Below are positions 42,008-43,020 of a stretch of DNA of 47,623 bases, piece after piece. Each line of letters opens with the position of its first letter. Position 1 is the first letter of the stretch. The DNA comes from a virus (Duplodnaviria > Heunggongvirae > Uroviricota > Caudoviricetes). The notes under the pieces were generated by a model, which was not told the origin of the DNA, made no database searches, and saw only the letters and a program-made list of their open reading frames with translations. Made by a program: the position numbers and the translations under genes. The stretch covers positions 1-47,623 of the IMG/VR virus record IMGVR_UViG_2541047816_000005; one strand, given 5' to 3'.

Positions 42008-42196
42008 ATGAACATTTATTTCAGAATAGTTATATCACTGGCAATTATCACATGTATTTACGGATTAATCGTTCCGGCCCTCATATCAATGAAGGATACG
42101 GTAGCAGTGATTTCTGGCTTTGCTCTGGCGTGTCTGACCCCGCCCTGCATTTATGCCATTTATAAGGGTCTTTCTTTTTCTAAGGATAAAAGATGA
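42008..42196 (+). CDS. small two-helix membrane protein upstream of the SPFH gene
   Basis: 62 aa with two hydrophobic helices; stop overlaps the SPFH start (ATGA at 42193). Confidence 0.45.
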   Translation: MNIYFRIVISLAIITCIYGLIVPALISMKDTVAVISGFALACLTPPCIYAIYKGLSFSKDKR

Positions 42197-43020
42197 AAAA
42201 ATTACTTTTTGCTTTAGCCCTTGTTCTGCCGACCATTGGCCTTGTCGGTTGCGATCGCGTTGAGCCTGGTAATGTGGGCATCAAAGTAAACAAACTGGGC
42301 GACGATAAAGGCGTCGGTGAAGTGGTCGGTGTTGGGCGCTACTGGACGGGATGGAACACTGAGGTTTACATCTTCCCGACCTTTAAGCAGATGAAGACCT
42401 ACGATGATCCATTCAGTTTCCAGATGAGTGACGGTACAACCATCGGCTATCACATCGGCGTGGCCTACAAAGTTGATCCATCCAAAGTTACCACAGTCTT
42501 TCAGACCTACCGCAAAGGCGTGGACGACATTACCGACACCGACCTGCGCCAGAAGATAGCCGACGCACTCAACCGACTGGCCAGCAAAATGACCACCGAC
42601 AAATTTATCGACGGCGGCAAGTCTGAGCTGCTGGATGCAGCTCTTAAAGACATTCAGGAAGAAATGACGCCCATCGGTATTCAGGTAATGAGCCTCTCAT
42701 ATGTGGGTAAGCCGGAGTACCCGCCTACTGTTATCGACAGCATTAATGCCAAAGTCACGGCGAACCAGAAAACCCTGCAACGCGAGCAGGAAGTAAAACA
42801 GCGCGAAGCGGAAGCCAACATGTTGCGCGCGGAAGCTGCCGGACAGGCAGATGCGATTCGCACAAAAGCCCAGGCCGAAGCCGATGCTATTCGTTTACGC
42901 GGTGAAGCTCTGCGCCAGAACCCCGGTGTTATGGAGCTGGAAGCCATCAACAAGTGGAACGGTACACTGCCGCAATACATGACCAGCGGTGCCAACACAC
43001 CATTTATTCAGGTTAAGTAA
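42193..43020 (+). CDS. SPFH/band-7 (stomatin/prohibitin-like) lipoprotein
   Basis: lipobox LVGC at the signal peptide; SPFH-like core then a coiled-coil tail KQREAEANMLRAEAAGQADAIRTKAQAEADAIR. Confidence 0.7.
   Translation: MKKLLFALALVLPTIGLVGCDRVEPGNVGIKVNKLGDDKGVGEVVGVGRYWTGWNTEVYIFPTFKQMKTYDDPFSFQMSDGTTIGYHIGVAYKVDPSKVTTVFQTYRKGVDDITDTDLRQKIADALNRLASKMTTDKFIDGGKSELLDAALKDIQEEMTPIGIQVMSLSYVGKPEYPPTVIDSINAKVTANQKTLQREQEVKQREAEANMLRAEAAGQADAIRTKAQAEADAIRLRGEALRQNPGVMELEAINKWNGTLPQYMTSGANTPFIQVK

Follow-up and report, generated by a model that had tools for sequence, protein, structure and literature searches.

A conserved hairpin membrane protein accompanies an SPFH lipoprotein in a mobile phage cassette

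Introduction

SPFH proteins are universal membrane scaffolds whose functions in bacteria are poorly understood, and phage-encoded versions have been noted in many genome papers. We analysed a pair of overlapping genes in an Escherichia coli lambdoid prophage, which encode a 62-amino-acid (aa) membrane protein with two hydrophobic segments and a 275-aa SPFH/Band 7 protein with a lipoprotein signal peptide. The pair occupies positions 42008–43020 of a stretch of 47,623 nucleotides (nt) (IMG/VR record IMGVR_UViG_2541047816_000005), referred to here as the window. As a member of a widespread cassette, the window copy is unremarkable and has been annotated before. The new findings are a conserved, uncurated family of hairpin partners and the link, supported by gene fusions, between this family and a distinct SPFH subfamily rich in phage members.

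In the E. coli HflK/HflC–FtsH complex (PDB 7vhq, 7wi3 and 9cz2), an SPFH core followed by a long helix lies at the periplasmic face of the inner membrane, a plan that the window protein is predicted to share. Unlike that complex, the window has a single SPFH gene, and its product (14–18% identity to HflK/C) has a predicted lipid anchor in place of an N-terminal transmembrane (TM) helix and is accompanied by a separate two-helix partner. SPFH–NfeD operons (QmcA–YbbJ, PDB 8z5g; YqiK–YqiJ) likewise combine an SPFH gene with an adjacent, co-oriented gene for a small membrane protein, and they offer a structural precedent for a partner inside an SPFH assembly. The phage partner differs in being a bare hairpin of 49–70 aa that lacks an NfeD domain, its gene comes first, and the phage SPFH protein is predicted to be periplasmic. 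The SPFH domain of QmcA faces the cytoplasm.

Membrane proteins other than NfeD can also recruit an SPFH protein, as in the envelope-stress system of Bacillus subtilis formed by YdjG/YdjH–YdjI (SamGHI) and PspA (bioRxiv 10.64898/2026.02.06.704340). SamI, unlike the phage lipoprotein, is cytosolic and works with PspA, and we saw no sequence relationship between SamGHI and the hairpin family, although no test was aimed at one. Closer to the window is the MbpV/MbpS pair of Kayvirus (Staphylococcus phages K and A5W): MbpS falls within the phage SPFH subfamily of the window protein (25% identity, with a K-W-N-G-K-x-P tail), and the gene of a small membrane protein overlaps its start by 1 nt. MbpS is nevertheless TM-anchored and has no lipobox, and MbpV, with 102 aa, one TM segment and a charged tail, is unlike the hairpin partner and is not detected by the hairpin profile described below. 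A first-pass annotation of the window proposed that small membrane proteins serve as partners of SPFH proteins, and in general terms this is supported. In full-text literature searches we found no phage SPFH protein whose function had been studied; reports on GIB1 (PMC13239085), CSP3 (PMC10269572) and Kayvirus MbpV/MbpS (PMC7150955) only describe the role as unclear or offer speculation about it. The PHROG families concerned, 200 and 1130, carry generic labels that give no function and no link between the two.

A conserved and coupled gene pair

The two open reading frames (ORFs) called by the first-pass annotation lie on the + strand, each behind its own Shine–Dalgarno sequence:

42008–42196, + strand: hairpin partner gene, 62 aa, predicted to have both termini in the cytoplasm (N-in/C-in; ORF, hydropathy, AlphaFold2, PHROG 1130)
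42193–43020, + strand: SPFH/Band 7 lipoprotein gene, 275 aa (Pfam, PHROG 200, RefSeq, AlphaFold2)
41999–42004, + strand: Shine–Dalgarno sequence AGGAGG of the partner gene, 3 nt 5′ of the ATG at 42008
42182–42186, + strand: Shine–Dalgarno sequence AAGGA of the SPFH gene, within the 3′ end of the partner gene and 6 nt 5′ of the ATG at 42193

At the junction (...AAAAG ATG A AAA...) the partner stop codon (TGA, 42194–42196) overlies the SPFH start codon (ATG, 42193–42195), bearing out the ATGA overlap and translational coupling that had been proposed.

This arrangement recurs in distant phages. Among 20 diverse loci inspected, nine have a two-helix ORF of 49–70 aa directly 5′ of the SPFH gene, overlapping its start by 4 or 1 nt (the window, phiP27, P88, Klebsiella, Aeromonas, Ochrobactrum, Burkholderia phiE125, jumbo phage SE_PL and N4-like KpCHEMY26), and a crAss-like phage has the same order with a 27-nt gap. 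The turn motif P-x-[LM]-[IV]-S-x-x-[DS]-[TS]...G is common to these partners. A hidden Markov model (HMM) of the partner, built from ten sequences, few for training, recovered the held-out partners of RCS47 (P1-like; E = 6 × 10−17) and phiEaP8 (N4-like; E = 8 × 10−11), as well as 4MG_114, a partner that lies one gene farther upstream (E = 1 × 10−10). When distant SPFH proteins were used to seed further loci, the best HMM match always lay on the SPFH strand. The partner was found upstream at 70 of 76 crAss-like loci, mostly 13–28 nt away and with SPFH identity down to 47% (the seed of this set, cr126_1, is a member of the HMM training set); upstream and overlapping at both alphaproteobacterial loci (2/2); and at 13 of 32 Pseudomonas-type loci, in 12 of them upstream and in one (L182) at the 3′ end of the SPFH gene. 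Bacterial genome loci gave a same-strand match in 62 of 80 cases, and Ounavirinae loci in 0 of 2. Judged from these sequence comparisons, the pairing of hairpin and SPFH protein is far beyond chance.

The pair is also stable over short distances. Near-identical IMG/VR copies with upstream sequence (97–100% identical to the window protein; 18 protein variants) retain the 62-codon ORF and the ATGA junction in 79 of 79 cases. Ratios of nonsynonymous to synonymous substitution rates in the IMG/VR copies (0.30 and 0.22 for the partner, 0.035 for the SPFH gene) show that both genes are under purifying selection.

Natural fusions provide a further link. In metagenome-assembled genomes of Iamiaceae (383 aa) and Uhrbacteria (360 aa), one ORF comprises the hairpin, a linker, a lipobox signal peptide and the SPFH domain. 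Because these fusions arose independently in two unrelated bacterial lineages, they argue that both proteins act together; and because the hairpin tail is joined to the cytoplasmic n-region of the signal peptide, the conserved turn would be on the same side of the membrane as the SPFH domain. A third, in-frame partner–SPFH fusion of 347 aa (P0098; P1-like plasmid contig JAPPYW010000018.1, locus L213, 3001–4044; Logan run DRR848867) differs at its junction from the unfused RCS47 solely in having A6 instead of A7. It could reflect a slippage-prone site or a sequencing artefact, and we count it as weak evidence only. Conversely, an insertion of ~770 bp parts the pair exactly at the ATGA junction in Shigella flexneri SFBU1023 and E. 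coli ECMA0423 (loci L215 and L216, ~730–1500) and changes the C terminus of the partner; we take the ORFs within it to be IS1-like InsA/InsB.

The hairpin partner

The description of the 62-aa product as a two-helix membrane protein holds. Hydropathy gives two hydrophobic segments, although TM calls made in this way are crude, and the AlphaFold2 model predicts a helical hairpin (helix 2–26, turn 27–30, helix 31–59) with a mean predicted local distance difference test score of 82. The protein is a full-length member of PHROG 1130 ('membrane protein'; E = 1.5 × 10−23). Its most conserved element is the turn:

42074–42118, + strand: partner turn motif P23...S27-x-K-D-T...G37, predicted to face the periplasm (alignments and AlphaFold2)

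P23, S27 and G37 are near-invariant in two partner alignments and fall at the helix–turn–helix junction of the model. Positive charges gather in the C-terminal tail (KGLSFSKDKR), so both ends are predicted to be cytoplasmic.

We found no Pfam family for the 62-aa partner. NfeD, which the first-pass annotation had raised as a candidate, drops out: none of 11 partner sequences matches PF01957 even at E ≤ 10, no other Pfam family is consistent among them, and 62 aa is too short for the oligonucleotide/oligosaccharide-binding (OB) fold of NfeD. The module is therefore not an SPFH–NfeD operon, though it is organized alike.

The family is large. An exhaustive profile search (E ≤ 1 × 10−3) yielded at least 756 partner clusters at 50% identity, and all 150 partner matches listed are 45–91 aa long; none of the 96 clusters from an indexed search is informatively named, and none contains a Pfam domain. 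By tblastn the partner is visible in just 25 phage records. Some partner ORFs have been left out of annotations, including those of RCS47 (NC_042128.1; locus L004, 3232–3467), phiP27 (locus L002, 3506–3694) and phiEaP8 (an open frame at locus L086, 1274–1513). The RCS47 ORF is intact, with 78 codons and a 20-nt overlap with the SPFH start inside an A7 run.

The SPFH lipoprotein

The SPFH assignment of the 275-aa protein is secure: it matches Pfam Band_7/SPFH (PF01145) over residues 22–208 at E = 8 × 10−31 (107.9 bits against a cutoff of 23.6), is a full-length member of PHROG 200 ('lipoprotein'; E = 1 × 10−114) and corresponds to the RefSeq entry 'SPFH domain-containing protein' WP_000734576.1. 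Three features characterize it further:

42193–42255, + strand: lipoprotein signal peptide with lipobox LVGC and Asp at +2 (Cys20 codon 42250–42252, Asp codon 42253–42255)
42724–42918, + strand: single 65-residue α-helix, aa 178–242, the coiled-coil wall element of SPFH cages (AlphaFold2; aligned to the helices of HflK/C, prohibitin and erlin)
42952–42972, + strand: C-terminal subfamily signature K-W-N-G-T-L-P, aa 254–260 (homologue alignments)

The N terminus (MKKLLFALALVLPTIGLVGC, followed by DRV) is a signal peptide ending in a lipobox that fits [LVI][ASTVI][GAS]C, so the protein is predicted to be lipidated, in line with its earlier description as a lipoprotein. The lipobox is kept in most Gram-negative SPFH homologues examined. 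The window protein has C20-D21, and Asp at +2 occurs in nearly all enterobacterial copies examined, one exception being Symbiopectobacterium, with Ala.

In the AlphaFold2 model an α/β SPFH fold is followed by the long coiled-coil helix, and the top fold matches of this model include the cage-forming HflK/C, prohibitin and erlin; among solved structures the closest by sequence is HflK (E = 2 × 10−4). The C-terminal signature defines the subfamily. W255, G257 and P260 are invariant in two SPFH alignments; across 17 phage versions G257 is invariant and K-W-[DN]-G-x-L-P is kept in most, Gram-positive phages included, within a shared tail K-W-[DN]-G-x-L-P...P-F-[VI] that extends to Bacillus and Staphylococcus phage versions.

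The first-pass annotation had invoked HflK/C, and as a statement of membership this does not stand. Against the NCBIfam equivalog cutoffs, the protein scores 25.4 bits for hflC (cutoff 134.4) and 23.4 bits for hflK (cutoff 159.4). It has a lipobox signal peptide in place of the TM anchor, and a scan of 17 window proteins gave no second paralogous subunit, the 275-aa protein being the sole SPFH match.

Other identities were considered and rejected. The pair is not a spanin pair (Rz/Rz1), since an Rz-like spanin (25382–25849) is already encoded by the phage beside its endolysin (26186–26719), in a lysis cassette that lies 16 kb away on the other strand; the Asp at +2 and the SPFH domain of the lipoprotein also speak against that role. 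A known defence system finds no support in the PADLOC-DB 2.0 search (5027 models, E ≤ 0.1), in which neither the pair nor three neighbouring proteins gave a match.

In many records the SPFH gene is labelled 'serine protease' (phiP27, AJ298298; Stx2 phages, LC5678xx; RCS47, FO818745). A Pfam scan detected no protease domain in the protein, and the label looks like a propagated misannotation.

Genomic setting and distribution

The window corresponds to a lambdoid prophage of E. coli, integrated next to mlrA/yohO, and a 3-kb query from it (41400–44400) is 100% identical to strain CU37RT-2. Between the immunity regulators and xis/int, + strand genes are closely packed, and the pair is part of this array. 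This array starts 3′ of two helix-turn-helix (HTH) regulator genes (39231–39686 and the 'CII-like' 39799–40242) and continues through ORF6N antirepressor-like and clamp-like genes to xis/int (46337–47623); the opposite strand carries the replication, Q, lysis and structural genes. 'Early-left operon', the term used in the first-pass annotation, is therefore a fair description, although a consensus scan found neither a sigma-70-like promoter nor an intrinsic terminator flanking the pair.

Comparison with other phages delimits a mobile unit:

42004–43049, + strand: ~1-kb cassette comprising Shine–Dalgarno sequence, partner gene, SPFH gene and hairpin (megablast, query positions 605–1650 of 41400–44400)
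43028–43048, + strand: 7-bp GC-rich hairpin, 8 nt 3′ of the SPFH stop, without a U-tract, at the 3′ edge of the cassette (RNA fold)

The cassette has 90–92% DNA identity to phiP27 and a dozen Shiga toxin 2 (Stx2) phages, whereas the flanks differ; it moves as a unit among phage backbones. Its 3′ hairpin has a folding energy of −13.7 kcal/mol (z = −2.3) and is not scored as a terminator. A moron, an accessory prophage cassette expressed autonomously, would have a promoter and a terminator of its own, neither of which the consensus scan found here, even though the unit is mobile. Of 5426 complete E. coli genomes, 544 contain matches to parts of the 3-kb query, and 198 of the matching places are on plasmids. 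The SPFH gene also occurs in the P2-like P88 (in the early operon), phage Fraca and Klebsiella prophages, and in P1-like phage-plasmids it lies between upl and tRNA-Met/ban.

By tblastn the SPFH protein is found in 780 phage records, among them strictly virulent groups: Staphylococcus Kayvirus (MbpS), Vi01-like, Vequintavirinae, N4-like, PaP3-like, phiCbK-like, jumbo, crAss-like and Lak phages, and haloarchaeal viruses. A scan of representative bacterial genomes with an alignment of 8 Gram-negative SPFH sequences as query matched Yersinia pestis pMT1, Pantoea and Kluyvera. At 30–47% identity, the protein is lineage-wide in ~40 Dyella/Rhodanobacteraceae species and also occurs in Leptospira, Cupriavidus, Bacteroidota, one actinobacterium and bacteria of the candidate phyla radiation. 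In Dyella (loci L229 and L243) and Leptospira (locus L271) the module is genus-conserved with chromosomal-looking flanks, which by eye from ORF translations encode a BlaI-like repressor, a hemerythrin-like protein and an ArsR-like regulator; the Dyella module lies beside a divergent BlaI/MecI-like repressor gene and upstream of hemerythrin-like genes.

Temperate phages thus carry the module in early operons and virulent phages in early or middle regions, and some bacterial genera have it as a chromosomal pair. Given these settings, its basic activity is probably membrane organization or quality control and not a lysogeny-specific switch; the copies in virulent phages and in Dyella and Leptospira chromosomes argue against a basic role specific to lysogeny or prophages.

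A proposed membrane scaffold and its alternatives

We favour, with moderate confidence, the interpretation that the two proteins together form an SPFH scaffold at the outer face of the inner membrane and are produced early in the lytic cycle. The 62-aa hairpin would span the inner membrane with both ends in the cytoplasm and would present its conserved turn, S-x-K-D-T, to the periplasm. The 275-aa protein would be exported, lipid-modified at Cys20 and, because of the Asp at +2, held at the periplasmic face of the inner membrane. With its SPFH core on the membrane, the 65-residue helix and the K-W-x-G-x-L-P tail may drive assembly into a ring or dome, by analogy with HflK/C, prohibitin, erlin and stomatin. 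The hairpin would be its dedicated membrane-embedded partner, probably in direct contact with it and made in fixed proportion through translational coupling. Judging from its place in the early operon leading towards xis/int, the cassette would be expressed at the onset of lytic growth and not in the repressed lysogen. The task of the scaffold may be to fence off or reorganize part of the host inner membrane while infection proceeds and so modulate resident membrane proteins, the leading candidate, again by analogy, being a quality-control protease such as FtsH.

We acknowledge several points that weigh against this interpretation. The timing of expression is read from gene position, and the target is proposed by analogy, with nothing that singles out FtsH. 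Retention through Asp at +2 is an enterobacterial rule that depends on the +3 residue as well, and in homologues from other lineages the +2 residue is S, E, N or R. The AlphaFold2 input alignment was shallow (relatives of 71–95% identity), confidence is low for the C-terminal 18 residues of the SPFH protein, and the predictions are of monomers, from which any oligomer or complex is extrapolated. Finally, the partner is undetectable beside the SPFH genes of Cytophagales, Ounavirinae, most PaP3-like phages, and Gram-positive and archaeal viruses, so the SPFH protein can evidently work without this partner or with unrelated ones.

Four alternative roles each have some circumstantial support and meet specific counter-evidence. 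A first, which we consider unlikely, is that the protein mimics HflK/C, capturing or displacing host FtsH from the periplasmic side and thereby altering degradation of a CII-like activator, as host HflKC and lambda CIII do. Its predicted periplasmic orientation is that of HflK/C, which are among its best fold matches, with HflK also the best sequence match among solved structures; the cassette occupies the operon that holds cIII in lambda, with the CII-like regulator gene nearby. The same suggestion, free of data, appears in the annotation of Aeromonas phage Gekk3-15 and in the CSP3 paper (PMC10269572). The protein nevertheless falls more than 100 bits below both equivalog thresholds, and prohibitin and erlin match equally well, so the fold does not single out FtsH. 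Moreover, many carriers of the module are strictly virulent phages, which make no lysogeny decision, and others are chromosomal Dyella and Leptospira loci; related SPFH genes also occur in haloarchaeal viruses, whose hosts, to our knowledge, lack FtsH.

Similarly improbable is a function in superinfection exclusion or anti-phage defence, in which the scaffold would cover inner-membrane components needed for entry of incoming DNA or would sense membrane damage. The cassette does switch between unrelated phage backbones like an accessory gene, and the classic exclusion effectors, which lend this possibility some weight, are early-expressed small inner-membrane proteins, periplasmic proteins or lipoproteins (T4 Imm and Sp, T5 Llp, phi80 Cor). 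Set against this are the absence of a match among the PADLOC models and of an own promoter for lysogen expression in the consensus scan, and the placing of the P2-like P88 copy within the early operon, a site that we presume to lie outside the known defence hotspots. The chromosomal copies in ~40 Dyella species, in a non-phage context, better fit a housekeeping membrane role.

A helper function in lysis timing or export, in which the scaffold would organize holins, endolysin export or Sec-dependent secretion of a phage wall hydrolase, is very doubtful. It draws on the location of the Kayvirus MbpS and MbpV genes between lysK and tgl, where the authors speculate on a role in Tgl export (PMC7150955), and on a peptidoglycan hydrolase gene two genes downstream in the crAss-like cr126_1. 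The distant, opposite-strand lysis cassette of the window counts against it, as does the setting of the pair in N4-like, P2-like and lambdoid phages, where its neighbours are early or replication genes.

Least credible is a lysogenic-conversion factor that acts on the animal host, as a prophage lipoprotein in vesicles stimulating Toll-like receptors (TLR) 1/2. The Pasteurella multocida prophage-island SPFH protein PM0222 (25–35 kDa), which is lysogen-expressed, vesicle-borne, TLR1/2-activating and involved in virulence in mice (PMC9872710, the one experimental report found), would be a precedent if it is homologous to the present subfamily, and the pMT1 homologue YPMT1.49c appears together with the adjacent YPMT1.49Ac in a Yersinia multi-omics virulence network (PMC3521224); but most carriers are virulent phages of environmental bacteria, the consensus scan found no own promoter, and every lipoprotein is a TLR2 agonist, so the PM0222 effect may be incidental.

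Neighbouring genes

Several observations concern the surroundings of the pair. An ORF6N-domain antirepressor-like gene (43064–43813, + strand) begins 43 nt after the SPFH stop. It is followed by a gene for a 189-aa protein (43810–44379, + strand) that weakly matches the β-clamp central domain of DNA polymerase III (Pfam, E = 0.005; NCBIfam dnaN, E = 0.002). The labels of this protein conflict ('beta clamp domain-containing' in RefSeq versus 'RusA-like resolvase' in PHROG), and it may be a phage half-clamp. Upstream, RefSeq has a frameshifted pseudogene (41354–41558, + strand) directly 5′ of the 130-aa gene that precedes the pair, and in some RefSeq annotations of the identical region in other E. 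coli genomes (for example, H30 and H32) one of the small ORFs is labelled 'ParE family toxin-like protein'. Farther away, the prophage contains a 380-aa OmpC-like porin gene (32840–33982, + strand; RefSeq 'porin OmpC') that adjoins the quuD antiterminator gene; its product is probably a lysogenic-conversion porin of the Lc/NmpC type.

Implications

The analysis corrects the widespread 'serine protease' misannotation of the SPFH gene. It also permits a bolder extension, to which we assign a low probability: that the hairpin and SPFH protein form a self-sufficient 'portable cage', deployed early in infection by phages whose hosts differ widely, that encloses a specific host inner-membrane machine, whether FtsH or another quality-control or translocation complex, from the periplasm. 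If so, membrane proteolysis would be reprogrammed, or the membrane sealed against competitors, during infection, and the new partner family would mark a general, unrecognized class of phage host-takeover device. Small, defined and amenable to genetics in E. coli prophages as well as in P1-, P2- and N4-like phages, the pair offers a system in which it could be asked what an SPFH scaffold at the periplasmic face does and why many virulent phages carry one.

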